From positions 5,146,001 through 5,210,000 of the forward strand of contig OZ234493.1 in the NCBI GenBank assembly GCA_965153455.1: a DNA stretch of 64,000 bases, read 5' to 3'. The stretch is from Sphagnum compactum (lineage: Eukaryota). Below the pieces are notes generated by a model. The model was not told the origin of the DNA and made no database searches. It saw nothing but the letters and a program-made list of their open reading frames with translations. This document shows, piece by piece, positions 11,101 to 25,749 of this stretch. The position numbers and the translations under genes were made by a program. Each line of letters starts with the position of its first letter. Position 1 is the stretch's first letter.

Positions 11101-11639
11101 CAAGGGTCTGTTCTCTAGTACATAAATGACCATACCTGCGTTTTGACATGTAAGGTAGGATTCTAACTGAAAACCTGAAACTCGCAGAATTCTCTGTGGC
11201 GATCAATTCTGTGCCTATTGATGGTAATTTACACCAGGGAACACTGCCCCTAGGGAGCATTCTTTTTGTACAAAGGCTGTTTCCATTTACTATGAGCATT
11301 TTCCTTTTTCAGTATCCTTCACAGAAAGATAATGAAGTAGAAGACACTTGGTTGAGGCAACAAAAACTTTTCCTTACGTAAGTTAATTGGAGGAATTTCT
11401 ATATAAACTTCATGAAATGAGGCCCCAAATGTGGTGCATGGTGCCCTTGTTCTTGGGTGCGTTTAAAAGGCCAGAGTGAACCAGCAGCCACCAATGCACC
11501 AGTTGGCCGTTCTGTCCACTGGATGGGTTGCGTTTTTTCATTCGGCATCGGATGGGGTTCATCACAGTTCATTTCTTTTTGCTGCTAACCATTGTACTTT
11601 TTTCTTTTGGTTCTTGACCGTTTTTTCCTGGATCTGACC

Positions 11640-11895
11640 TCACACATAGCTACCCTGCTCACTTTTCTACCCTCATAAGTATTGCACCAACCTTGGTACT
11701 TTATTTATTATCCCCTACTGACATAGCTACCCTAATAACTAGTTATCCTGTTGACCTAGCTACTGTACTAACCACCTACCCTACTAACCTAGCTACCCTA
11801 TTAATTACATACCCTACTAACTTAACCACTATACTAACTACCTACCCTATTGACCTACCTACCTACCCTACATACACAACCATCCTATTGACATA
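11640..11895. repeat. 33-bp minisatellite in left subterminal region of the MULE
   Basis: Unit ~ACCTACCCTACTAACCTAGCTACCCTATTAATT repeated; produces the spurious TYPTNLATLLT ORF 11693-11896. Confidence 0.8.
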
Positions 11896-12697
11896 AGTGT
11901 TTTACAAACCTAGTCACCTTGATAAGGTAACTTGTTTCTTATGTACTAACTTGCCTATCTACCTAACTACCTATCTATCTATGCTTTTTAAAAATAGCCA
12001 AATACCTAATTAACTACCTACTCACTTTTTCCACCCCCACCCTAGCCCCCCCTCAATCCTACCTATCAATTTATTAAGATTTGCCCATATGTAAGTATTA
12101 CAAACAATTTATAGTGGAAACAATGCCATAATTGCATCCATTTTGGTTTAGTTAATGCATATTTTACTAAAATTTGTTTACCGAATTTATTATTGAATGG
12201 ACATTACAATACATATTTTCATGTAATTATTATAAGTATGTACTATTGGATTATGGTTTAGGTTTAGGGTTGAGACACATAAATTAATTAATAAAATTTT
12301 CACAAATGTATAGTAATTAATCTAAAATAGGCTAAATTTGGGGGGAAATTTTTAGGGTTTACACATATGTGAAGTAATACAATTGCATTTTACATCTTCT
12401 TCAAAAATAGTGGAAAAAATTAAGTTGGAGAGATCACACAAATGCAAAAGACATATCTTCTCTTTTGGTTTTGTATGAAATTTATTTGATTGTTTTTAAA
12501 GATTAACGTATTTTGCATTATATAATTTGTATAGTTTGTATAGTTTTTTGGTTTAGGGCATATATCACTAAGACTTTTTTTGTTAGGGTTTGTATAATTA
12601 GGGTTGTAATAAGGCTTATGGCAAAATATCATTTGGATTTTTAGGGTTATGTTTTATTATTTTGTGTATAGGAATTTGGTTCATATATTTCAGAATT

Positions 12698-13305
12698 TAA
12701 GGTTTATACTCTAAATTTTGCTCATTGTATTGGTTTTCGATCTTTTCACTTGTTTAGATCTATACCATAATTATGAATCTCCTTTGTTTCCATATGTTCC
12801 ATAGTTGCTAGAGTTTAATATTTTCTAACCCATTTTGTACGAGTTATGATTTTTTAGGGTTGCGTTTTCAATTGGGACTACAAACTTTGGTGGAACATTG
12901 TCATTTTTTATTCTTAAAGGTATGCATTTGTCTCTTGTTACTTCTTTGTTTTTTTGTTTATATTTTCACAATTCAACCTCTTTTCATTTCCTGGTTATTG
13001 CTAAGGTTTATACTTTAAATTTTGCTCATTGTATTGGTTTTTGATCTTTTCACTTGTTTAGATTTATACAATAATTATGAATCTCCTTTGTTTCCATATG
13101 TTCCATAGTTGCTAGAGTTTAATATTTTCTAACCCATTTTTGTACGAGTTATGATTTTTTAGGGTTGGGTTTTTAATTGGGATTACAAACTTTGGTGGAA
13201 CATTGTCATCTTTTATTCTTAAAAGTATGCATTTGTCTCTTGTTATTTCTTTTATTTTTTTGTTTATATTTTCACAATTCAACCTCTTTTCATTTCCTAG
13301 TTATT
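12698..13305. repeat. ~304-bp tandem duplication inside the MULE
   Basis: TAAGGTTTATACT.TAAATTTTGCTCATTGTATTGG... starts at 12698 and 13002; the copies are near-identical through ...CATTTCCT.GTTATT. Confidence 0.92.
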
Positions 13306-13446
13306 AGATATAGAAAGGGCGTCAAGTTTTATTAAGTATACAATCATAAATAAAGGTTTTATACTTTTACACGGATATTTCATATCCAATATCTCTTTGT
13401 AGTTTAGTTTTTCATACCCATATGCGAATAATGCATTGACTACCCA

Positions 13447-14266
13447 TGACGCGCTCCCAAGTCCCTTGTTGAACCCACTTGAGGGTCTAACTATGTGAAG
13501 TTGCGGAAAGTTGGGACTTGAGGGCCGCTCCCGACTTCCAGCACTAAAGAGGGGTAGAGGGGCGTGCTAGAAGTCCCGAGATTAGACTAGGAAGAGGGAC
13601 AAGCGTTTCACCTTCTCAAATCAGCATCAAAACCAACCCCAAGTTGGTTAGAACTCATTCTGCACCCTTTTGGTGTTGGGACAAGCCACGGGCTAACTCG
13701 GACTCACTTGACTCATCACGGCCCGGACTCGGGGGAAGCCACCACCTTCCCCCATATAGTATACTCTGCGTCTCACCGCGGAGGCTACATCCGAATGGCT
13801 CTTTTCCCCGGGACTCCCAAGTTGGAGTCCCGAAACTGTCGCGGGTTGGAGTCCTGGAACTTTGGGAGCTCGTATCTCTCGGCTCCAACCTCCGATTGGA
13901 GTGAGGTCTGAACAAAAGTTGTAGCCCTCTTTGAGAGCTTTCCAACGCCATGTCGCACTCCTTCAGGCAACTTCAGGAAAAGGTCGATTCCTGACTTTTA
14001 ATGGTCGGGAGTCAAACTGCCAGTTTGACTCCCGGCCCTTCTTTTGCCCATAACTTGGGCTGCAGATGTCCAAATTGCCAATGCGAGGGCATTTAAGACA
14101 TTTACACTTCAAGACCTTTCCATTAATATAAAAAAAACCCCAAGGCGAGGTGTTTTGACGCCCTGTAATCCCTTCTCTGTTTTTGAGAGTCTCAGAGGAC
14201 TCTAACTTCCCACTTTTAGGAGTGTGGGCTTCACCCTCACACTTAGCCCAAAGTGGGGTTGCGACA
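13447..14266. mobile_element. Solo LTR (820 bp) nested in the MULE
   Basis: TG...CA termini (TGACGCGCTCCC...GGGGTTGCGACA), 5-bp TSD ACCCA at 13442-13446 and 14267-14271, sharp GC rise over flanks, no internal gag/pol. Confidence 0.88.
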
Positions 14267-14289
14267 ACCCACAACCAGTGTGGGTTTTA

Positions 14290-14620
14290 TGGCTTAAAGC
14301 AGGTATTACATTTTGCACCTTTCAAACAATGTGCATTAATTATCATTATGTGGGTATTGCTACATGGGGTTTTCAGACATTATGGGTTTAAGGTATAATC
14401 CAGGTATTGCATATGTGAACATTTTCAATGATGGGAGGTTTAATAGCTCAATGTGGGTATTGCCAAAGTTTGTTTTGGTATATTGGTTCATAATGCAAGT
14501 ATTGTACGTTATGTACATTGGAACAATAGGTATTTTATATCATGATATTGGTGTTGGAATGGGAATTCCAAGTCACAACATTGATTTTAAAGGAGCCATG
14601 TATGTATTGCATTTTGGGTT
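14290..14620 (+). repeat. Array of RGTATTRCA-like motifs upstream of the transposase
   Basis: AGGTATTACA (~14301), GGGTATTGCT (~14352), AGGTATTGCA (~14402), GGGTATTGCC (~14455), AAGTATTGTA (~14497), TGTATTGCA (~14603); spacing ~50 bp. Confidence 0.7.
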
Positions 14621-14692
14621 TTTGTTCAATGATGAATGTTTATAGAATTATAAATTCTCTTGGTGCAGGAATTTGTCCTACTTCCTTCAATC

Positions 14693-17227
14693 ATGGGAAG
14701 GGTTCCATAGTCCCATTCCATTCATGTCCAAAACCCCACCAAATCCCCTTTCTCAAACAAAGATTTGGTGTCAACATCTGGGATATGCCATGGAGGGCAA
14801 AATAAAGTGACCATTCAATTTGCTTATGTTCCATATGCTCACATCTCGGAATTCTTGGAAGGTGAACAAGGGGATATGAGCACCTCTGTGGAATGGAATG
14901 TTTACAAAAACTTTCCAAGCCAAACGGATGTCAAGCAACCAACTATCAAAAACCACCTTGGGCATACATGGTAAACATTTATGGCATTAACCTTTTTAAT
15001 TTCTTTAATTCATATACCAAAGATGTAATCATTTACATTTTGAAAGTTTTTTGTTTTAGGTATCAATGCGGATATGGACCAGAGGACTATCGAGAAAATT
15101 CAACCCACACTCGATCTATTAAACGAGGATGCCTAACATCATTTTCAATCAAACGTTTATACACATGACCTGATGTGGCTAAGATCACAATTTATCATAA
15201 GGCCCACACACGAATTGATGATGGGTCATTCGCACATGGTGAACATGACCCGGAGTCCATTTCTCGTATGTCTCGTTATGCTCCACGCATGGCACAAGCA
15301 TTGAAGGACCACATATGGGCCCAACTAAGCTTAGGTTACATGACCAAATAAATATATGACAAGCATAAAGCAATTTGGTGGGAACGTGTGAATGGGGGTC
15401 AAAACATGACACGAGATGATTTCATTTGGCTTCAAGACATTGCATATTTGGATCGAAAACATAAGAAAGGGATTTGGCGTTTACACACCAACCTTGTAAT
15501 TTCAATTCGGTCTTGGGCTCTCAACATCCGGAAGATGTGTTCTTTTTCCAAGATGTTGATGAAATCAACGGGACTCAAGTCCCATTCACCATAGGTATTC
15601 AAACACCAACTCAATGTGAGTCCATGCTATCATATGGTCACAATGGTGCCATTTTTATGGATGCCACATTTGGCACAAATGATACGAAATTCCATCTATT
15701 CACCTTGATGGGGTTTGATGATCATCACACGAGTGTCCCTTAGCCTGGATCATTACAAGTAGGCAAACAGTTCAAGATTTGATCAAATGGTTGAAACCAT
15801 TAAAAGAAAAGATGTTATCACACATGCCACATTGGAAACCATCATGTTTTCTCGTTGATGATGCACTTCAAGAATTGAAGGCATTACGGTTAGTTCTATA
15901 CCTAGTATCGACTTTGTGTTTATTTCCTTAAATGTTTTTTAATATCTTTCATAAAGTTCTTGATTACTTCAAATGCATTTTATGTTGTACTAACCCCATC
16001 CACTCATGGAGATTTTATTGCATATGTGTCCTTATTAGGGTCGTATGGGGTATGGACAAGGTTCCCATTTACCTTTGTTGTCGGCATGTTCTCAAAGCAT
16101 GGCGCTTACGTGGTACTGAAAAAATCAAAGATGTGGAAGTGTGGGGTGGAATCCTCCAAGACCTTCATGATGTGATGTACATGTCCATCAATCATGGAGA
16201 AACAATTGATGACTTCAAAGAGCGTGGGAGGGTTGCTGTGAGAAAAAGCCTTCATAAACATAGGCCTGGTGATGTGTGGACAAATTATTTATGGACTTAT
16301 TACCATCAGTTTGGTAAGTGATAATATTTATCATGGTTTAACATTCAAAATTATTTTGTATAATGTTATTCATCCTTATGTATTGTGTTTATGTTTGCAA
16401 AATTATGGATGGTGGGTGTTCGAAGGGTGCCCCATTCCAACCAAGACACCCAAGCGAGCATTGAATCATATCATGGTGCGTTGAAACGTTGGCTTGCTCT
16501 GGACACAAAAGGCCTTAGAGGGTGTACGATTGACAACAACCATTGCACGCCACTACATGCACACATTGGAAATGAAAAAAAAGGGTTTCATAAAAAACAA
16601 GGTTATGGAGGCCATTATTACACGAAGTGTGGAAAAGGCACCCCTTATTCCATTCACCCATGTGTACCAACCAACCCTTGAAAGTGATGGAGCTTGGGCC
16701 GTATGGAACCAACGCCTTCCCAATGTTATTTACATGGTGAAATTCCCATTCACCGAAATGTTTTGTTGCACATGCAAATGGGCATTGCGAGGGAACATGT
16801 GTAAACACCAAAATTGCGGTCATTCTCACATGCATAGACATTTCTCAAGAAGATATCATTCATTACTGTGGAACATCGTGGAGGGTTGGGTCACATGTTT
16901 GCAGACCTGCGACATATTCCAGATGATATGGAGTCCAATGATGATGACGAAGATGATCATCTTGAAGGTGATGATGGGATCATGGAATTTGATGGGCTCA
17001 TGGACATGGAGCAAAATGATCTCCCTATGGGTGCCACTTCACACATGAGAGTATTGGCATGTAATATTCGTAACATACACCTCATAAAGGCAAATGCAAT
17101 TTCACACCCAGGATTGGTGTTACGCCATGTAGAAGATGGATTGGGAAATAGTGTCAAACGGCACAAAGATTGGCATGAAACAATGCTCAATCACACAAAT
17201 GTACGTACTAAACGATGTCACAAATAA
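14693..17227 (+). pseudogene. MULE transposase with SWIM zinc finger (spliced, disrupted)
   Basis: Motifs across frames: YQCGYGPEDYR; GAIFMDATFGTNDTKFHLFTLMGFD (first D); KPSCFLVDDA (second D); VPIYLCCRHVLKAW (CxxH); QASIESYHGALKRW (E); CCTCKWALRGNMCKHQ (SWIM); acidic tail. Introns ~14971-15059, ~15889-16038, ~16314-16400. Multiple stops and frameshifts. Confidence 0.9.
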
Positions 17228-17449
17228 ATGTCTCAATTACTAATCAAGATTGTTGCCATTAGCACTAAGAATTTTGTTTTTAGAATCAATTTTGTATGGA
17301 GGAAACCATATCCCAAATTCTTTGAACATCATGTATTCAACACGCACATGAAGTCTAATATGGCACAAAGGTTATTATTGTTTCCAAGTAATAAGCACAA
17401 AAAATGTGAAATGCAAAAAGACAAGGATAATGATAATATTAGTGTTAAA

Positions 17450-17955
17450 TGCAGGTATTGTAACTAGGCCCCAAAATCCTAGTTGGTAAAAGTAAGTACA
17501 AGTGCAAGTATTACAATTATGCCCCAAAATTCTAGTTGGTAAAGGTAAGTACGGATGTAGGTATTGCAATGAAACCCCAAAATTCCAGTTGGAAGAGGTA
17601 AGTATAAGTCCGAATATTGCAAGTTTAAATGAAAAAACAAGCCTAACTACAATACCCACGTTTCAAAAAAACCCATCTAAATGGGCTAGAGTGGATACCT
17701 TTAAGTGAAGACCTAGCCCTAAACACAATATGCACATGCAAAGTCACTTTGAAATAACCTTACCTTAAATGCAATACCTGCATTTTGGGCCATTTCGAAA
17801 GTACGCATGTGGGGTTTAAGCCTCTTTATACAAAGATCCTACCCTAAATGTAATACCTTCATTTTGGGTCATTCCGAAAGTACGCATGTGGGGTATAAGC
17901 CTCTTTAAATGAAGATCCTAACCTAAATGCAATACCTACATTTTGGGTCACTCCA
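17450..17955. repeat. Motif arrays downstream of the transposase (~53-bp units on +, then 79-bp units with the motif inverted)
   Basis: AGGTATTGTA / AAGTATTACA / AGGTATTGCA at ~17453, 17506, 17559; then ACC.TAAATGYAATACCT...GAAAGTACGCATGTGGGG units at ~17762, 17841, 17920. Confidence 0.85.
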
Positions 17956-20099
17956 AAATAATTAGTTAATTTCAAAATAATATGCTAACAAAGGTGTGTA
18001 TAAAGGTTGGGGTTGTTGATTAGGAGTTCCATGATTCTTACTTTGTTTCATGAATTTGAAAAGAGATTGTATTGTTTGTGGAACAAATAGTACAATGACA
18101 ATTGTGATCAAGTTTATCTTGGTGTAGGAATTTTTCATGAAAAAGCTGAACTTGCAATCTATAATGTGGAATAATTATCTTAAATAGTGATTTCAATAAC
18201 TTATTAAAACAAAAATATACTTGAGTTAATTAACCAAATATCAAATTAATCAATCTGATTTTTAGATCTAACTTTTTATTATCCAAGTAAATAAAGTTAC
18301 GCCAAATGATTAGTTAATTATTTTAAATAAATAAATGATTATCTAATTCTTGATAATTAATCATTTTAATTATCTGAAATAATGGTCTATTAATTATTTA
18401 ATTATATGACAAAATTTGTTGATAATTCATTAATTATCAGAAATATTTTATATTAAATTCGGGGGAAACTTTTAGGGTTTAGACATATGTGAAACAATAA
18501 AATTTCATTTTATATCTTCTTCAAAGAGATTGGGAAAATTAGGTTGGAGTTATCACACAAAGGTAAGAAGCAAACCCTATGTGAAAACCCAACCTTGAAT
18601 GCAATACAAAGTTTGTCGAGATCAAAAAATATAAAGTTCAAGCTTAAAATTTCTTCAAAGATGTTCATTTTTTTTTCCCCTTTTGTATACTCATTTAAGA
18701 AAACATAAATATAAAGTCTCTATTTAATAAGATTTTAAATTATGTTTAAAAAAAATTCAAAGCACATAATTTTCTACTGTTTTTTTTTGTGTTTCACATA
18801 ATAAAAAATGATTTCTCCCACATATTAATCCTATGTTTGATTAAAATTTTATTTTATTCTTTTCTGATATATAGTAAATAAGTTCATGGTTAAAATAATC
18901 ATATAGTGGGTCAAAAATATTTTATATTTTATACATATATAACACAAGTCCTTATGTAAACTTTATTTTTTATGATGTATAATATTAGTTTAAATATTGG
19001 TCCAAATATATGTTATTTATAACACATAATATATAAATAATGATATTATGGAATTATATTGTTGATCCATTTCAATACATATAATATTTTCATATTTATT
19101 TATAACATACATATATATATATATATAAACCTATGGTTATGTATATTGCAATTATTTTTAATGAACTTTGTTTTTAATGCGAATTTAAAAATTCCAAAAG
19201 ATTAATAGCTAAGTATGAAAATGTTCTTAAACGTCATGCCAGATTGTGTGGATTTTAAAAGCTTTGTGAGGGCCAAGTTGTTATGTAATGTTTTCGACAC
19301 CTTCAGAAGTTGAAAGATGACTTGACTATCCAAAAAACATAATAATATTCATAAAACAACAACCAAGAATCTATAGCCTTGACAACTTACTAGCTTCAAC
19401 AAAAGTTCAAACCTAAGGTTGTCAGATTGACTAAAGTGTCGACATTGACCAAATTAAACAACCTAACCTAAACATGAGTAATATGTTAGTAAGCTATTTG
19501 TTAAGTAACCTAATTAACTACCTAATAGGCTACCTACGTAATATAGGCCTATTATGTAATTTATTCATTAGTGTAGCCTTCTAGGTTAATATCTTAGATG
19601 GTCTATGTAGGTATTGAAGGTGGTTGAATTTATTAAGTAAACATACTAGTTATATAGGTAATATACTAGCCTAGGCCACGTAAGCCTAATAAGCATTTAT
19701 GACAATTTAATGTCTAATCCTTATTGTATTATAACATTTAAATTTGAACTAAAAAAATTTATTAAAAAGAAAGCACATTTTTCCATGTTATTATTCTAAG
19801 TATATATTAATTGAATATGATTCAAATTCAGAGTTTGGGAAACCCTAAATTAATTAACATTTTTTTTACAAGTTCATAGTAAATAAAATAAATCTACGGT
19901 GCATTATAGGGGGAATTTTATATGCAAAATAATGCAATACATATTTTTAAAGAAATTGAAAGAGATCAGCTTGGAGATTAACAAATGGGAAAAAATACCT
20001 TCTTTTGTGTTTTGTTACAAATTTTATTTAATTATTAAATAAATTAAAGCTAAATTTGTAAATGGTGAAAGTAAGTATGTGTGTGGATATTGCAAAATT

Positions 20100-20400
20100 A
20101 TATGAAACCTTAACCCTAAATGCAATAGCCATATTCAAGTTCATTTCAAAATAACCCATAGGTGAATAAGGTAAAACCTACAATGAAAGGACAACCTTAA
20201 ATGTAATACCCACATGTAAGGTCGTTTTGAAATACCCAATATGTAATTTGGGTGTGCCTTTGAATGAAGACCAAGGCCTATATGCACTACCTACATGTAG
20301 GTTCTACTGAAATAATCCATAGGTGATTGAGGCAAACCTTATGTGAAGACCCTAAACCCTAAATGCAATACCCGCATGTAATGTCATTTCAAAATAACTA
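20100..20400. repeat. ~81-bp tandem repeat (4 copies) related to the 79-bp unit
   Basis: CCTAAATGCAATAGCC / CCTTAAATGTAATACCC / CCTATATGCACTACCT / CCTAAATGCAATACCC at ~81-bp spacing. Confidence 0.75.
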
Positions 20401-20489
20401 ATAAGTGGTCTGGGTACCCAAAATATGTCTGTTTATACACCTAAATTAATTATTATTCTGAATTAATTTTATGACAAAATGTAAGTTTT

Positions 20490-21000
20490 GGAATGAATGT
20501 AAAAAACCAACAATTATTATGGGACCTATATGCAAGTATTATAAGAGATGTAAAAAACCAGCGGTTATTATGGGACCTATAGGTGGGTATTGCAAGGAAT
20601 GTAAAAAACCAGCGACTATTATGGGACCCATATGCGGGTATTGCAACGAATGTAAAATGACAGGGTCTACTATGGGGCCCATATGCGGGGGTTGCCACGA
20701 ATGTAAAATGCCGGCGACTATTATGGGACCCATATGTGGGTATTGCAACGAATGTAAAATGCCAGCGACTATTTGTGGCCCATATGCGGGTATTGCAATG
20801 AATGCAAAATGCCATCAGTTATTATAGGACTTATATGCGGGTATTGCAATGAATGCAAAATGCCATCAATTATTATAGGACTTATATGCGGGTATTGCAA
20901 TGAATGCAAAATGCCATCAGTTATTATAGGACTTATATGCGGGTATTGCAATGAATGCAAAATGCTAGCGGCTATTTTAGGACTTATATGCGGGTATTAC
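20490..21000. repeat. 51-bp minisatellite (~10 copies)
   Basis: Unit GGGTATTGCAATGAATGCAAAATGCCATCAGTTATTATAGGACTTATATGC; gives 17-aa periodic pseudo-ORFs (CGYCNECKMP...) on both strands. Confidence 0.93.
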
Positions 21001-21442
21001 ATATTTGAAAATGGCCTTATGGAATTTATAATAAAAAATGATGTAGGTATTATATGTTTTAAATGTGTGTATTGTTTTAAAAGTTTTCAGGTGATGTGAG
21101 TCCTATTACATTAGATATAAGTATTTGCAGACCCTAGACAAATTAATGTTACCTATTCATATGGGCCTATTTTAGGTTTGATTCTTACATTTCAAGTACT
21201 AAAAAAATTATGACAAAAAAGACATATATCATTAACCATATACCCATCAAACAAATGTGAGTAAAAGATACTATTATATTGATAAAAGATGTACAAAAAT
21301 GGGTGCATGAAAAATTACTAAAAAACCCAATGAAAAAAAAACATTGGTTCTCTGTAACATATCAAAGGATTGAAGTTCAAAAATTGGGTAGTCCAAAAAA
21401 TAAAAGGGCTAAAAAACCTAACTAATTATATAAAGTGGAACC

Positions 21443-22963
21443 CTAAACCATATCAGTATCAACAATCCTGTGTTTAGCTCGGTATGCAGCTGCTGCATTT
21501 GTAGCCTTTGCTGCATGACGAACAGTGTAAAAATGGTGACGTTACATCTCAATCTGAATTGCATTTGCAACAAACTCTTCCTTGTTTTGTCCTGAACCTT
21601 ATAAACACCCAAAAACCACCAAATTAAACGCTAACACACCTTGGATGGAATACAATAAAAAAATAATAAACATTGATTATTATTGTTTCTTACCTTCCAT
21701 GAATCATTCTAGTTTCATGAAAATCCAAGACATTTGCTAACTGTTTTGTTCGACTTGTTTTACTGGACTTTTGATCCCAATTTTTGACATCCCATGCCAT
21801 CTTTAGTTGTCGTGCACACACACAATGGGTGGATCGAATCATCCCTTGTAAATCTTCATCCTTCTCCATCCGTGATGTTGCATTTTGATGCACACTGTGC
21901 ACGCCCTAGGCATTGAAGCCCAACACCTTCAACAATTGCTTTGAAGCTAATTTGACCAAAGCTGGTTTTGGGATTGACACTGTTTTGCAACAACTACCAA
22001 GTTATTCCACTCGCGCTGTGCTTTGGCACGAGCGCGACTAGCAACCTTTTGATCATTTCACCTTTGTATGGCCATGGCATTTCCCAAGATGCGAGCATTC
22101 ATTTTGGCATGGTCTTGATGTCGAGGACTTCTTGCAGAAGTTAAAGGCCTCCTAGGTTTGGCCTTTTCTGTCACTAACCCATGCACCTCTTTCAAATGCT
22201 TGGTCAACAACCATTTGGCACAATATGCGACAATGCAAGTGCTAACTTTGCATTTCCATTTCGACCCAACCTTCGTCCATTCTTTGTCCTTCCGAGCCAA
22301 ATTAGGTGGACAAGCAGGTGCTAGTGGCTGAGAAGCCTGGTTAGTTTCAAGTTCCGGACCTAAACCAAAAAATGAGAGTTAAAAAAACAGAATGCAGGTA
22401 TTACAAAACATAAAATCACACAGTCACATACTATTCCTATAAACATTAACTGTTTTCAAGTATTACAATAGAGAAATTTTGACAAAAAAATCCCGCACCT
22501 TCCAACAAATGATGGAAGGTGCGGATATAATTAAACTTCAAAAAACTTGTACAATTTCTCTAATCTGTATTTAATCTAATGTCCATAAATTCTAGAACAA
22601 TCTATATTACAAACTGTCATCCTTGTGTTTCAATTATGATAGAGCACCATTTTGCTCACCAATTGATTGATATGATGCAACAACATTTTGGTCACCAATT
22701 GCCTCATATGATGCAGCAACATTTTGTTGAACAATTGCTTCATCCGATGCAGCAACATTTTGCTTAACAATTGTCGCATCTGATGCAGCAACATTTTGCT
22801 CAACAATTGCCGCATCTAATGCAACAACATTTGGCTCAGCAATTGCCTCATCTACTGCAGCAACATTTGGCCCAACAATTGCCTCTTCTGACGCAACAAC
22901 ATTTTGCTTATGAACTTCCAATTCACCACCACCACTTTTCTTTAATCTCTTTCCCCTAGCCAT
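21443..22963 (-). pseudogene. MULE accessory gene: acidic 12-aa repeats + C2H2 zinc finger + unknown domain (spliced, disrupted)
   Basis: ATG at 22963: MARGKRLKKSGGGELEVHKQNVVASEEAIV... with ~8 repeats of (E/Q)QNVAASD(E/A)AIV. Acceptor near 22360, then PELETNQASQP...WKCKVSTCIVAYCAKWLLTKHLKEVH (C-x4-C-x12-H-x4-H). GTAAG donor near 21693. Last exon ...GSGQNKEEFVANAIQIEM.RHHFYTVRHAAKATNAAAAYRAKHRIVDTDMV* ends at 21443. Several internal stops. Confidence 0.7.
22640..22915 (-). repeat. 36-bp coding tandem repeat (~8 copies)
   Basis: Unit ~TGATGCAGCAACATTTTGCTCAACAATTGCCGCATC; 12-aa periodicity in both strand translations. Confidence 0.9.
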
Positions 22964-23064
22964 TACAACCTTCGACCCTAAACAAAAAACCACCATTTCT
23001 TTATTAATTGTTAATCTTAATGAACTAAACCATAAGCACCAACAAAGAAAATAAAATAAAATCG

Positions 23065-23945
23065 CCACCATAGAAGAAGGCGACGACATTGCTGCCGTCA
23101 TCTTCTTCGCAACAAACCACCAAAAAAAGGCAAAGGTTGCCATTTCCTTGCAGCAAAGCCATCGAAGCAGGTGACGGAAGTTGTCATCTTCTTCTTCTTC
23201 AATACAATGAAACCACAAAAGAGTAGGTTGAAGGTGCGCAGAAAGTGTTGCACAGTGCACTAAAAAAAAAGAAAAAAGGCGACAAAGCTGCCGTCGCCTT
23301 CTGGGCTGTAAAGCTGCCGTCACCTTTTGGGCTGCATAGCTATCCTCGCCTTCTTCGCTGCATTGCGACAAAAAAAGAAGAAGAAGGCGACAACAACAAC
23401 ACTACCATCGCCTTCTTCGTTGCACAACAAGAAAAGAAAAAGAAGAAGGTGACGGCGTTGCTGCCGTCGCCTTTTTCGCTGCGCTGGAACAAAAAGAAGA
23501 AGAAGAAGGCATGGCAGCATTGCTGCCGTCGCCTTCTTCACTGCGCTACAACAAAAAAAAAAAGCGACTGTTGTCGCCTTTTTTGCTATGCTGCAAGAAA
23601 AAAAAAGAGGCAATGGCAGCTTTGCTACTGTTGCCTTCTTTAATGAGTTGCACCAAAACAAAAACAAGAAGGGGCCTTGTGACGACTGCAACAAAAAAGA
23701 AGAAGAAGGTGATGACAGTTGTTGCCGTCTCCTTCTTCACTACACTGCAACAAAAAAAGAAGAAGGCGACGACGTTGCTACCGTCGCCTGCTGTGTTGCA
23801 ACAAAACGAAAAAAGAAGGCGACGGCAGCGTTGCTGCCGTCGCCTTCTACGCTGCAACAATAAAAAAGAAGGTGCTTTCTTCACTACGCCTTCTTCATTG
23901 CACTGCAACAACAACAACCAAAAAAAAAGGCGACAGCAGCAAAGT
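23065..23945. repeat. Array of ~13 GC-rich hairpin (palindromic) units separated by A-tracts
   Basis: Consensus GAAGAAGGCGACGGCAGC-N-GCTGCCGTCGCCTTCTTC (best copy ~23813-23848), ~55-60-bp period, in the right subterminal region of the MULE. Confidence 0.88.
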
Positions 23946-24332
23946 AGGAGGGGAAAATTTTGGGGCAGAGAAGAGGTGGAAAAAAACAATACCTGCGGGC
24001 AGGGAGGATGGGTTTTTGGTTCATCCCCAAAACAGCTTCAACGGGCTCATCCTCAACTGGTTCATTGGTAGCTGCTGGTTCACTCCAGCCCGTTTAAAAG
24101 AGGGATGGATAGATTCAGGTTCCACTGCTGCAGCATTGAGAGCGAGAATCAGCGCCATGACTGGAATGGGCAAAAAGTGCCGATTCTGCATGTATATTGT
24201 AGTTTCATGGCAGTGAAGCAACTCTTCATTGCCAATTCTGGGGCAAGGGTTACATGGCAGAATCATTTGCAGAAGGTCAATTCTTTTGTACCTAATGGGT
24301 TTTGATGTCTCATTCAAGTACTAGGTTTTGTT

Positions 24333-24678: not shown

Positions 24679-25749
24679 GTTTTTTCCTAGGTGGGACAAT
24701 GGTTCCACATCTGGTGCTGCCAGTTTCACTTGCAATGTCAGTCAACAGAAGGAATAATCAGGTACAAATTGGAATGGTCCTGGTAGAACACATTATCTCA
24801 CTTGGAGGAACAGCCTGTCACCCTACCAGACTCAACTGATTCCTAGGTGGAATTCTTGACTTGGATAGCTTCCCAAAATTTATGGCATGCCTGAGTGCAT
24901 CTCCATAATGCGGAAAAGTACTATGCAGAGTTGTCACAATGTAACATTAGGAGGCCGGATTCTGCAAGACCAAACTTAAATTATTGTAACTAAATGATAA
25001 AAGATCCAATAAAAACTGATGGCCAGAACCATCACACAGAAGACAAAAGGGAAGGCTGAAAAAATGCCAAAAGATGCGCAGCCCACAGAACCCAAGAAAG
25101 GTTCGAGCTAGACCCTCTCATGGTAAAAAGCTATTTCACACACACAACCCCTCTAATGTCACTTGCATGCAAATTGTGGATCTAATAACAATAAGAGGTC
25201 TTAAACAAGCATCTCCTGCCAAAGCAATCTTTCTCTCTATAACAGAGGCTAAAGCACTTTGAAAAGTAATATTACATGCTATGTGAAAAACTAAATGCAA
25301 AAAGACAAAGATAAAATAGATTATTGCAAATAGGTATCTTTGCAACATTCGTAACCTGGAATGATGGAACCTTGCCCATTCCGCAGGGCTCATCCACTCC
25401 ATTAATCAGATTTTTCGAGAGGCTGAATCTACCCATGAAATCATCCGAATTCCACTGACACGTAATCCTACATAACCAATTATAAAATGTAATTCTCCAA
25501 ATAAGGTGATTACCAAAATAAGTTCCGCCATATACTTGAATTGTAAAGAAATGGCAGAATCGGCCTCCAGCGCAGTCTTAAGTTCGTAGGAGTGCGCATT
25601 TCTCACGAAACACGAAACCCTAATGAGGGTTCGTGTGGAAGAAAGGAAGGGATTTCATGACAACCGCGTCTTCACTAAATTTCTGTTGCTGCTGAAGGAG
25701 GAGGAGGAGCGAGTTGAGCACCCGCAGATCGAACACGAGCGACGTCAAA

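Follow-up and report, generated by a model that had tools for sequence, protein, structure and literature searches.

A decayed two-gene Mutator-like element of Sphagnum carries family-specific short-motif arrays, possibly binding sites for an element-encoded protein

The window, meaning the whole 64,000-nt stretch of Sphagnum compactum DNA analysed here (contig OZ234493.1, positions 5,146,001 to 5,210,000), contains at 11470-24090 what is best read as a decayed, autonomous-type copy of a multicopy Sphagnum-type Mutator-like element (MULE), with a transposase gene and a family-specific second gene, hereafter the accessory gene. Its features, in window coordinates, are as follows.

11460/61-11469: left target-site duplication, (C)GTTTAAAAG, 9 or 10 bp, identical to the string at the right end
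11470-11505, + strand: left terminal inverted repeat (inverted-repeat pair I1, 84% complementary)
11713-11863, + strand: left subterminal repeats with 17/33-bp periods, CCCTACTAACCTA type (TRF; 4/4 window matches lie here)
12698-13305, + strand: tandem duplication, 304 bp, 95% identical (self-BLAST)
13447-14266: nested solo LTR (TG...CA), 820 bp, not the MULE's own, with a 5-bp target duplication ACCCA
14297-14611, + strand: array A, five motif sites with at most one mismatch at ~50-bp spacing (motif positions)
14866-17227, + strand: MURA-type transposase pseudogene (ORF pieces, Pfam, homologues)
17449-17620, + strand: array B, 53-bp units, motif on the + strand (TRF, 17450-17609, and motif scan)
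17761-17958, - strand: array C, units of 79 bp in which TTTAGGG follows a motif on the - strand (TRF and motif scan)
18911-20093: AT-rich segment, 1.18 kb, missing from many copies (DNA joint 18911->20093, 25 reads)
20093-20400, - strand: array D, 81-bp units related to array C (motif positions 20121, 20202, 20283 and 20364, unit reading, self-BLAST)
20485-21054, + strand: array E, 51-bp units, eight sites with at most one mismatch in the GGTATTGCA scan (TRF, 20495-20998, and scan)
21440-21591, - strand: last accessory exon, limits and splice phase approximate (reading against P0218; in-frame TAA at 21542-21544)
21694-22359, - strand: accessory exon 2, C2H2-like finger, GRP-containing basic linker and long helix (ORFs and translation reading)
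22360-22659, - strand: accessory intron, two motif sites and a hairpin (70 copies; annotated Sphagnum proteins join exons here, P0208)
22660-22963, - strand: accessory exon 1, basic N-terminus, then about eight acidic 12-residue repeats with a 36-bp period (TRF and translation reading)
23074-23936: right subterminal region and accessory 5' region, AAGAAGGCGACGG repeats, often as palindromic pairs (17/18 window matches; inverted pair I2)
24054-24090, - strand: right terminal inverted repeat (pair I1 and loose read ends at 24090/24091)
24091/92-24100: right target-site duplication, (C)GTTTAAAAG, matching the left string

The duplication (C)GTTTAAAAG found at both ends falls within the 9-11 bp typical of MULEs, and the terminal inverted repeats (TIRs) are imperfect and ~40 bp long, the inverted-repeat arms measuring 44 nt (11462-11505 and 24054-24097, complementarity 84%). 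DNA reads and polyA RNA came from a genome with the same species label as the window. Loose ends of DNA reads accumulated at both boundaries (311 reads at 11469, 243 and 226 at 24090 and 24091), and their flanks agreed poorly with one another (0.35-0.37), which indicates many insertion sites. A preliminary description of this DNA as a two-gene MULE bounded by TIRs and a target-site duplication is confirmed by the duplication, the TIRs, the transposase on the + strand, the convergent accessory gene on the - strand and the read breaks at the element ends. The solo LTR is found at other positions in the related loci L012, L030 and L027, and a DNA joint at 13441->14267 (61 reads) represents copies without it. 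The AT-rich segment is likewise missing in L034, L012, L020 and L021.

The transposase consists of a FAR1/WRKY-GCM1-like N-terminal segment (read by eye), a MULE core and a C-terminal CxC...CxH string. Pfam searches of the window piece gave weak matches to MULE and ZSWIM RNaseH-like domains, below threshold (E 0.0019). Its assignment to the MURA type comes from close homologues, 56-92% identical, that bear PF10551 and PF21056; many of the 51 homologues retrieved carry one or the other domain. Compared with these homologues, the stretch 15139-15740 contains at least two in-frame stops and at least two frame changes. The accessory gene is also broken: exon 2 has a TGA at 22058-22060, a 4-base gap after 21977, defined against the majority of 68 copies, and a TAG at 21906-21908, while other copies keep intact ORFs of 241-250 aa. 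Both genes of the window copy are, thus, pseudogenes. The family is transcribed in sense at a low level. PolyA RNA reached a depth of 4-8 over the accessory gene, with first mates on the + strand only, which in most stranded libraries denotes - strand RNA, that is, sense for this gene; it reached 1-2.7, in sense, over the transposase and 0 over the arrays.

The accessory protein is best read, from its translated sequence, as built like a transcription factor, with a basic N-terminus, acidic repeats, a finger, a linker and a helix. The earlier claim of a convergent C2H2 zinc-finger gene holds for the strand and for the presence of a finger, with the amendment that there is a single C2H2-like finger, below the Pfam threshold, in a pseudogene. 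The finger cysteines and histidines and a PST..GP..QDH..MN block persist even at 30-40% identity. The peptide-repeat region of exon 1 ranges from 180 to 535 bp among 60 other copies. Pfam searches with six family proteins identified no family, only weak C2H2 matches (E up to 1), and a profile search against PDB sequences returned only TFIIIA (E 0.14). A structural model of modest quality (pLDDT 68.5, pTM 0.32) had no Foldseek match in the PDB at E<=0.001, and VIA-align found generic helices only (Z<=5.8). VANC, the accessory protein of Arabidopsis VANDAL elements, was not among the matches in the Pfam, PDB sequence-profile and fold searches. Stops were found in 64 of 72 gene copies, and dN/dS among copies was 0.39 vs 0.54 and 0.72 in the wrong frames, a weak indication of selection on the protein.

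The family comprises tens of copies, and the transposase is missing from many of them; all 80 of the 80 related loci align to the window around the accessory gene. Hundreds of copies of this gene exist, 483 of 599 pattern matches encoding a relative of its product. L034 and L012 arose by deletion; between the same two ends of the element they retain the accessory gene together with arrays B-E. The accessory gene, whose absence from other copies had been named as a possible objection, is therefore a conserved, multicopy component of the family, and annotated Sphagnum proteins give it its own start and N-terminal exon. Host-gene capture of the Pack-MULE type was considered and rejected: position, orientation and intron are the same in two subfamilies ~40% identical, and there are hundreds of copies. 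No single-copy host homologue was identified, in a search that did not extend to host genomes.

The non-coding DNA of the element is rich in one motif, originally reported as RGTATTRCA, whose full form is longer, 14 nt (ATGNRGGTATTRCA). The density first noted for RGTATTRCA was reproduced, with 24 occurrences in the window (3.0 expected), 21 of them inside the element. Allowing at most one mismatch, ATGNRGGTATTRCA has 26 sites in the window, 25 inside the element; the expectation over the full window is 0.52, and none of 100 shuffled windows gave more than 2. Exact GGTATTGCA occurs 12 times, always inside. Sites with at most one mismatch were found neither in the transposase coding stretch (14866-17227) nor in the accessory exons, and the motif does not occur in the TIRs. 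Across family and neighbouring DNA drawn from the same 80 related loci, exact GGTATTGCA reaches 1.11/kb over 214 kb of family DNA vs 0.022/kb over 179 kb beside it. This ~50-fold enrichment answers the question, raised at the outset, of whether the motif is more frequent inside the family than around it. As in VANDAL elements with VANC, the motif forms dense tandem arrays in family-only non-coding DNA. Four exact GGTATTGCA matches lie outside family DNA, 2/4 in a divergent relative. The element has two further motif classes besides that of the arrays, and the telomere-repeat-like AACCCTAAA is enriched too (10/11 window sites inside the element, 0.98 expected).

The units that surround the motif are of at least four unrelated kinds (A, B, C/D and E). 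Array A precedes the first transposase ORF piece by ~250 bp; its motif positions include 14302, 14353, 14403 and 14456, the spacers are unalike so that only the motif recurs, and TRF makes no repeat call over 14290-14620. Of the five tandem units initially listed, those of 53, 79 and 51 bp are called by TRF, while the 81- and ~50-bp spacings are visible in motif positions only, and the 79-bp (C) and 81-bp (D) units are versions of one unit rather than separate ones. Arrays change length in unit steps between copies, with an overall range of 235 to 530 bp; array E measures 235-480 bp in 31 other copies, and in the window copy it has one extra, degenerate site at 21041. All arrays of the window copy are internal, no closer than 2.8 kb to either end, and many copies have a 79-bp array ~350 bp from the left end (joint 11817->17756, 81 reads). 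The sites previously noticed in the accessory intron lie at 22397-22405 and 22459-22467, the majority of 70 copies having exact GGTATTGCA at both; the intron hairpin has a 12-bp stem (22492-22524, z -5.65). A 13-mer of the right subterminal region occurs ~250 times across 52/80 loci.

A divergent subfamily, represented by L027, encodes an accessory protein ~40% identical to that of the window, and BLAST found no DNA match between the two elements apart from the nested LTR. L027 keeps the array motif (ATGNGGGTATTRCA), conserved rather than changed, with four sites in a 73-bp array in the same accessory intron and orientation and four more in the 3' flank. The subterminal palindromic repeats differ, being of the AAGACGATGA type in L027 vs AAGAAGGCGACGG in the window.

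We infer that the motif is a protein-binding site. Its being the only sequence that recurs in array A, its presence in at least four unrelated unit contexts and its retention in L027 are counted as signs of selection on the motif; the copies are ~90% identical, and comparison between them gives no extra conservation of it. We propose, tentatively and as somewhat less than probable, that an element-encoded regulator binds the ATGNRGGTATTRCA arrays. The arrays, whether 5' of the transposase gene, between the 3' ends of the two genes or within the accessory intron, would then be clusters of its binding sites, with the accessory protein as the prime candidate binder of the array motif (ATGCGGGTATTGCA). 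Binding to the arrays would allow the family to identify its own copies and maintain their competence for transcription, through activation, by counteracting silencing, or both, and the effect would reach transposase-less derivatives in trans. Several observations count against this reading: the predicted recognition positions of the finger, read from sequence as A, W, L and K, are for the most part hydrophobic, an unusual property for residues that contact bases; the modest model of the accessory protein matches no known DNA-binding fold; selection on this protein among copies is only weakly indicated; and the transposase has an N-terminal DNA-binding-type segment of its own.

That segment leads to an alternative we consider unlikely, in which the transposase binds the arrays through its N-terminal domain, for transposition or self-activation, and the accessory protein has a different role. 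Acting alone, the AtMu1c transposase binds cognate copies and activates them, according to a preprint (bioRxiv 10.64898/2026.08.24.746577); arrays on both sides of the transposase gene, the many copies with a 79-bp array near the left end and the retention of arrays by transposase-less derivatives, as expected if they were needed for mobilisation in trans, would agree with such a role. However, the motif is missing from the TIRs, where the preprint places the AtMu1c binding peaks, the arrays of the window copy are internal, and the motif is retained in the accessory intron of two subfamilies. Rather less likely, in our view, are enhancer-like clusters for a host transcription factor giving stage- or stress-specific expression. 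A short, dense motif close to both genes, conserved across subfamilies rather than co-varying with them, and the enrichment of a second host-type motif, AACCCTAAA, would suit this idea, but near-absence outside the family is unexpected for a widely used host site: the array motif is nearly missing from the 179 kb beside family DNA and from the window's remaining 51 kb, in which promoters were not specifically sampled. Least likely of all, arrays generated by slippage or unequal exchange of one ancestral unit, with no sequence-specific function, would account for the related C and D units, the unit-step length changes and the lack of extra motif conservation among ~90% identical copies, but not for a motif that is the sole survivor within array A and across unit types, is still present in a relative where BLAST fails to align the DNA around it, and avoids coding DNA.

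Binding of the arrays by an element-encoded regulator is directly testable, given a well-defined motif and intact zinc-finger-exon ORFs in other copies. Sequence-specific regulators encoded by transposons have been described for few systems, namely VANC, TnpA and, in a 2026 preprint, the AtMu1 transposase, as far as the accessible texts go. Our literature search, which did not cover subscription journals and supplements, found no description of Sphagnum MULEs or of such an accessory gene. If correct, the proposal would add an independent bryophyte case with an unrelated protein, hence convergence on dense short-motif arrays paired with a cognate protein, and would offer a second and simpler setting in which to study how transposons label copies of themselves.

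Among known systems, maize MuDR carries mudrB (MURB), a second, convergently transcribed Mutator gene with no known domain. The accessory gene is likened to it by description alone, as a convergent second gene without a known domain; to our knowledge, MURB has no target arrays. Maize En/Spm encodes TnpA, a non-catalytic protein that regulates its own element, which has many 12-bp subterminal motifs in both orientations. The moss element would resemble it in its many short motifs in both orientations and in having an element-encoded non-catalytic protein as candidate binder. It differs in that En/Spm belongs to the CACTA superfamily and TnpA motifs are subterminal, whereas the arrays of the window copy are internal. 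TnpA is a regulator that evolved from a transposase, as stated in the preprint (bioRxiv 10.64898/2026.08.24.746577); the moss accessory protein gives no sign of such an origin. The same preprint describes sequence-specific self-activation by the AtMu1 transposase of cognate copies, including non-autonomous relatives. AtMu1 is also a MULE, but it lacks an accessory gene and is bound within its TIRs, while the moss element has a second gene and a motif outside them.

The closest layout is that of VANDAL21 (Hiun) with VANC21, like the moss element a MULE with a transposase and an accessory gene; in both, a motif of 9-14 nt forms tandem arrays in non-coding DNA. In VANDAL21, arrays are found 5' of the transposase gene and within the intron of the accessory gene, they expand and contract, and the protein has a variable tandem-peptide region (Hosaka et al. 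2017, PMC5735166). The moss element matches each of these points, with array A, the intron sites, arrays that gain and lose units and an accessory protein with a variable tandem-peptide region. The proposed analogy with VANC, thus, stands for the layout and for a family-specific, non-coding motif. The searches gave no sign of homology: VANC is reported to have a MAIN-like fold and to be dicot-specific (PMC13547354), whereas the moss protein is a C2H2-like finger with helices and has no Pfam or PDB match, so that the resemblance, as far as these searches go, is one of architecture only. The likeness of the GTATT core to YAGTATTAY, also put forward at first, is a mere resemblance without further support. 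Unlike VANDAL21, the moss element has clear TIRs and, unlike the fast target turnover of VANC, by which target motifs differ between related families, its motif is conserved in L027, the sole divergent subfamily examined. By analogy, and with considerable doubt, mosses may have arrived at a VANC-like system of their own that is based on an unrelated protein, in which case self-recognition by protein plus array would be a solution reached repeatedly by the Mutator elements of land plants. A MULE-encoded C2H2-finger/acidic-repeat protein would, on this view, bind ATGNRGGTATTRCA arrays and reactivate cognate copies or protect them from silencing.

The element occupying positions 11470-24090 of the window is a MULE bounded by terminal inverted repeats (TIRs) and a flanking direct repeat, with a transposase and a convergent accessory gene. 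Its features are listed below.

Features of the element in the window, with strand where assigned
11462-11505 and 24054-24097: TIR arms, imperfect inverted repeats, 84% complementary
Both ends of 11470-24090: flanking direct repeat (C)GTTTAAAAG
13447-14266: nested solo LTR, 820 bp, TG...CA, target duplication ACCCA
14297-14611: array A, ~50-bp spacing, spacers unalike
14866-17227, +: transposase ORF pieces, weak Pfam matches to MULE and a ZSWIM RNaseH-like domain
Array B: 53-bp units
Arrays C and D: 79- and 81-bp units, orientation opposite to the other arrays
Array E: 51-bp units
Accessory exon 2, -: single C2H2-like finger, C-x4-C-x12-H-x4-H
Accessory intron, -: 300 bp between exons 1 and 2, two motif sites
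Accessory exon 1, -: ATG at 22963, basic N-terminus followed by ~8 acidic 12-residue repeats with a 36-bp period
12263-13166, 18471, 19841, 20112, 20355 and 21439: sites of the telomere-repeat-like AACCCTAAA

Raw DNA reads from a Hi-C library, taken from a genome bearing the same species label, were mapped at 85% likeness. Loose read ends accumulated at the element limits (311 reads at 11469, and 243 and 226 reads at 24090 and 24091), and their flanks agreed poorly (0.35-0.37). Summed read depth was 37-304 within the element; of the five flank bins, four had 0-5 and one (24928-25478) ~15. The depth and the loose ends identify the element as a member of a family numbering tens of copies, a rough estimate given the very low flank depth and the Hi-C library. 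The nested solo LTR is very abundant among the DNA reads, polyA RNA is rich in related sequence (depth 60-100), and further insertions lie at other places in the related metagenome loci L012, L030 and L027.

The non-coding DNA of the element contains clusters of one internal 14-nt motif. The motif RGTATTRCA, named in the preliminary description, is real and enriched (24 exact occurrences in the window, 21 of them in the element, 3.0 expected), but it is only the core of the longer motif ATGNRGGTATTRCA. Allowing at most one mismatch, the 14-mer occurs 26 times in the window and 25 times in the element, with 0.52 expected, and all 12 exact copies of GGTATTGCA in the window fall within the element. 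No motif sites were found in its coding stretches. Array A was not called by TRF because its spacers are unalike, and the units of arrays C and D are versions of one unit. Several frames on each strand are open across the array E region (20462-21099), giving ORFs of 113-121 residues; the unit length of 17 codons accounts for them, and they are no evidence of a gene. The window holds 11 telomere-repeat-like AACCCTAAA sites, of which 10 fall inside the element (0.98 expected); those in arrays C and D adjoin the main motif. Plant telobox sites recruit host Myb-type factors.

Related copies were collected through one metagenome scan using a pattern from the closer alignment, which retrieved 80 loci and left out most of the divergent subfamilies and the transposase-bearing copies. 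Among the pattern matches listed, 483 out of 599 encode a relative. Of all non-simple 9-mers in the loci, exact GGTATTGCA ranks first: it occurs 242 times, spread over 68 of the 80. The preliminary description had proposed counting the motif inside and outside the family; across the 80 loci, the exact form reaches 1.11/kb in family-homologous DNA, compared with 0.022/kb in the remaining 179 kb. The intron motif is exact at both sites in the majority of 70 copies, and both are mutated in the window copy. Array E varies from 235 to 480 bp and from 4 to 8 sites, all in one orientation (31 loci), while the peptide-repeat region spans 180-535 bp (60 loci). Conservation of motif and spacer showed no contrast between copies, which are ~90% identical throughout.

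None of the 80 loci reaches the transposase, and only L034 and L012 are long enough to do so. Both are deletion derivatives in which window position 17223 is joined to 12695 through 17 filler bases (L034 5469-5485; L012 14462-14478). They have lost the transposase and array A, retain the accessory gene and arrays B-E, and carry an additional 79-bp array ~350 bp from the left end, whose junction is frequent in the DNA reads (81 reads). The identical deletion junction in two independent loci shows that a derivative without transposase, but bearing the accessory gene, was itself mobilised.

Searches with accessory exon 2 retrieved 139 cluster representatives at E<=0.001, including 36 at E<=1e-10, although some weak, long matches are generic multi-finger proteins. 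A second homologue search yielded 80 longer proteins. Homologues with species names come from Sphagnum balticum and S. jensenii, and all others are metagenomic. Intact copies encode one ORF of 241-250 residues, and the annotated Sphagnum proteins P0208 and P0218 join exons 1 and 2 at the inferred site. The finger helix differs between subfamilies, AKWLL and TKYNL types both occurring. Relative to intact copies, the window gene has a TGA at 22058-22060, a 4-base gap after 21977 and a TAG at 21906-21908; its last exon has a TAA at 21542-21544. Across the family, stops occur in 64 out of 72 ungapped exon-2 copies, so most copies are decayed. Pairwise dN/dS for exon 2 is 0.39, and the wrong frames give 0.54 and 0.72; this is weak evidence of constraint on the accessory protein.

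For the transposase, 51 homologues match a 92-residue piece, and many of them carry PF10551/PF21056. Compared with these, the stretch 15139-15740 of the window copy is interrupted by at least two in-frame stops and shows two or more frame changes, which mark the transposase gene as a pseudogene; the accessory gene of this copy is one as well. The element described earlier as a two-gene MULE does contain a transposase and an accessory zinc-finger gene, but neither is intact here.

A Pfam scan of six family proteins assigned no family, the sole matches being sub-threshold C2H2. The AlphaFold model of the accessory protein (pLDDT 68.5, pTM 0.32) comprises a beta-beta-alpha finger (45-77), a KPGRPST-containing loop, a 44-residue helix (101-144, pLDDT 84-94) and more helices. 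Comparison with the PDB was uninformative: Foldseek returned nothing at E<=0.001, and the wide VIA-align search produced only helical hairpins or long helices (Z<=5.8), among them an NFIL3 bZIP helix that is not counted as evidence. A DUF6589 identity was rejected, as the protein atlas clusters at 0.92 lie within the shuffled-sequence range and Pfam gives no support. We also considered the basic helix as bZIP-like, with ATTGC/ATTAC resembling C/EBP/PAR half-sites, a reading dropped because the residue register misfits. The accessory intron, conserved at least as well as exon 1, contains a hairpin whose 12-bp stem is perfect, and after it a T-run (22492-22524; -25.4 kcal/mol, z -5.65); the hairpin is kept across 70 aligned copies.

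In polyA RNA of the same species label, reads cover the accessory gene (21071-22723) to a depth of 4-8, and their first mates all map to the + strand. Such mates denote RNA from the - strand in most stranded libraries, and by this usual convention the accessory-gene RNA is sense. Sense depth over the transposase is 1-2.7, and the arrays have essentially none. Most RNA reads are less than 95% alike and hence derive from other copies.

Locus L027 also carries an accessory homologue, of another subfamily (~39% identical to window exon 2 and 60% to the homologous protein P0040). BLAST otherwise aligns this part of L027 with the window element only at the nested LTR. The intron preceding the finger exon of this homologue nevertheless contains a 73-bp array, in which four ATGAGGGTATTRCA-type sites keep the same gene-relative orientation, and four more motif sites lie in the 3' flank. 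In the window, AAGAAGGCGACGG repeats, often in palindromic pairs, fill the accessory 5' region beside the right TIR (23074-23936), which holds 17 of the 18 AAGAAGGCGACGG matches. The equivalent place in L027 (4883-7020) has a palindromic repeat of AAGACGATGA type, as opposed to AAGAAGGCGACGG in the main family. Judging from this one relative, the internal motif is deeply conserved alongside the accessory gene while the subterminal repeats change.

As the likeliest reading, though a tentative one, we regard the arrays as putative binding-site clusters for an element-encoded regulator, with the transcription-factor-like accessory protein as the first candidate to bind them. The subfamily-specific palindromic repeats, AAGAAGGCGACGG and AAGACGATGA, are a candidate alternative target of an element protein. 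Alternatively, the transposase itself may be the regulator that binds the arrays, a role of the kind shown for the self-activating AtMu1 transposase (bioRxiv 10.64898/2026.08.24.746577). A host factor might also bind them, or they might be without function.

The proposal that an element-encoded protein acts on its own arrays had been framed as a VANC-like system, and the likeness extends to the layout. Arabidopsis VANDAL21 is described (PMC5735166) as having a dense and oriented motif, whose arrays lie ahead of the transposase gene as well as within the accessory intron and change in their number of units, and a protein with tandem peptide repeats. No sign of kinship was seen between the moss accessory protein and VANC, which is reported to be MAIN-like and dicot-specific (PMC13547354). 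We therefore class the moss element as an architectural analogue of VANDAL/VANC rather than a member, resembling VANDAL21 in array positions, dense oriented motif, variable unit number and tandem peptide repeats.
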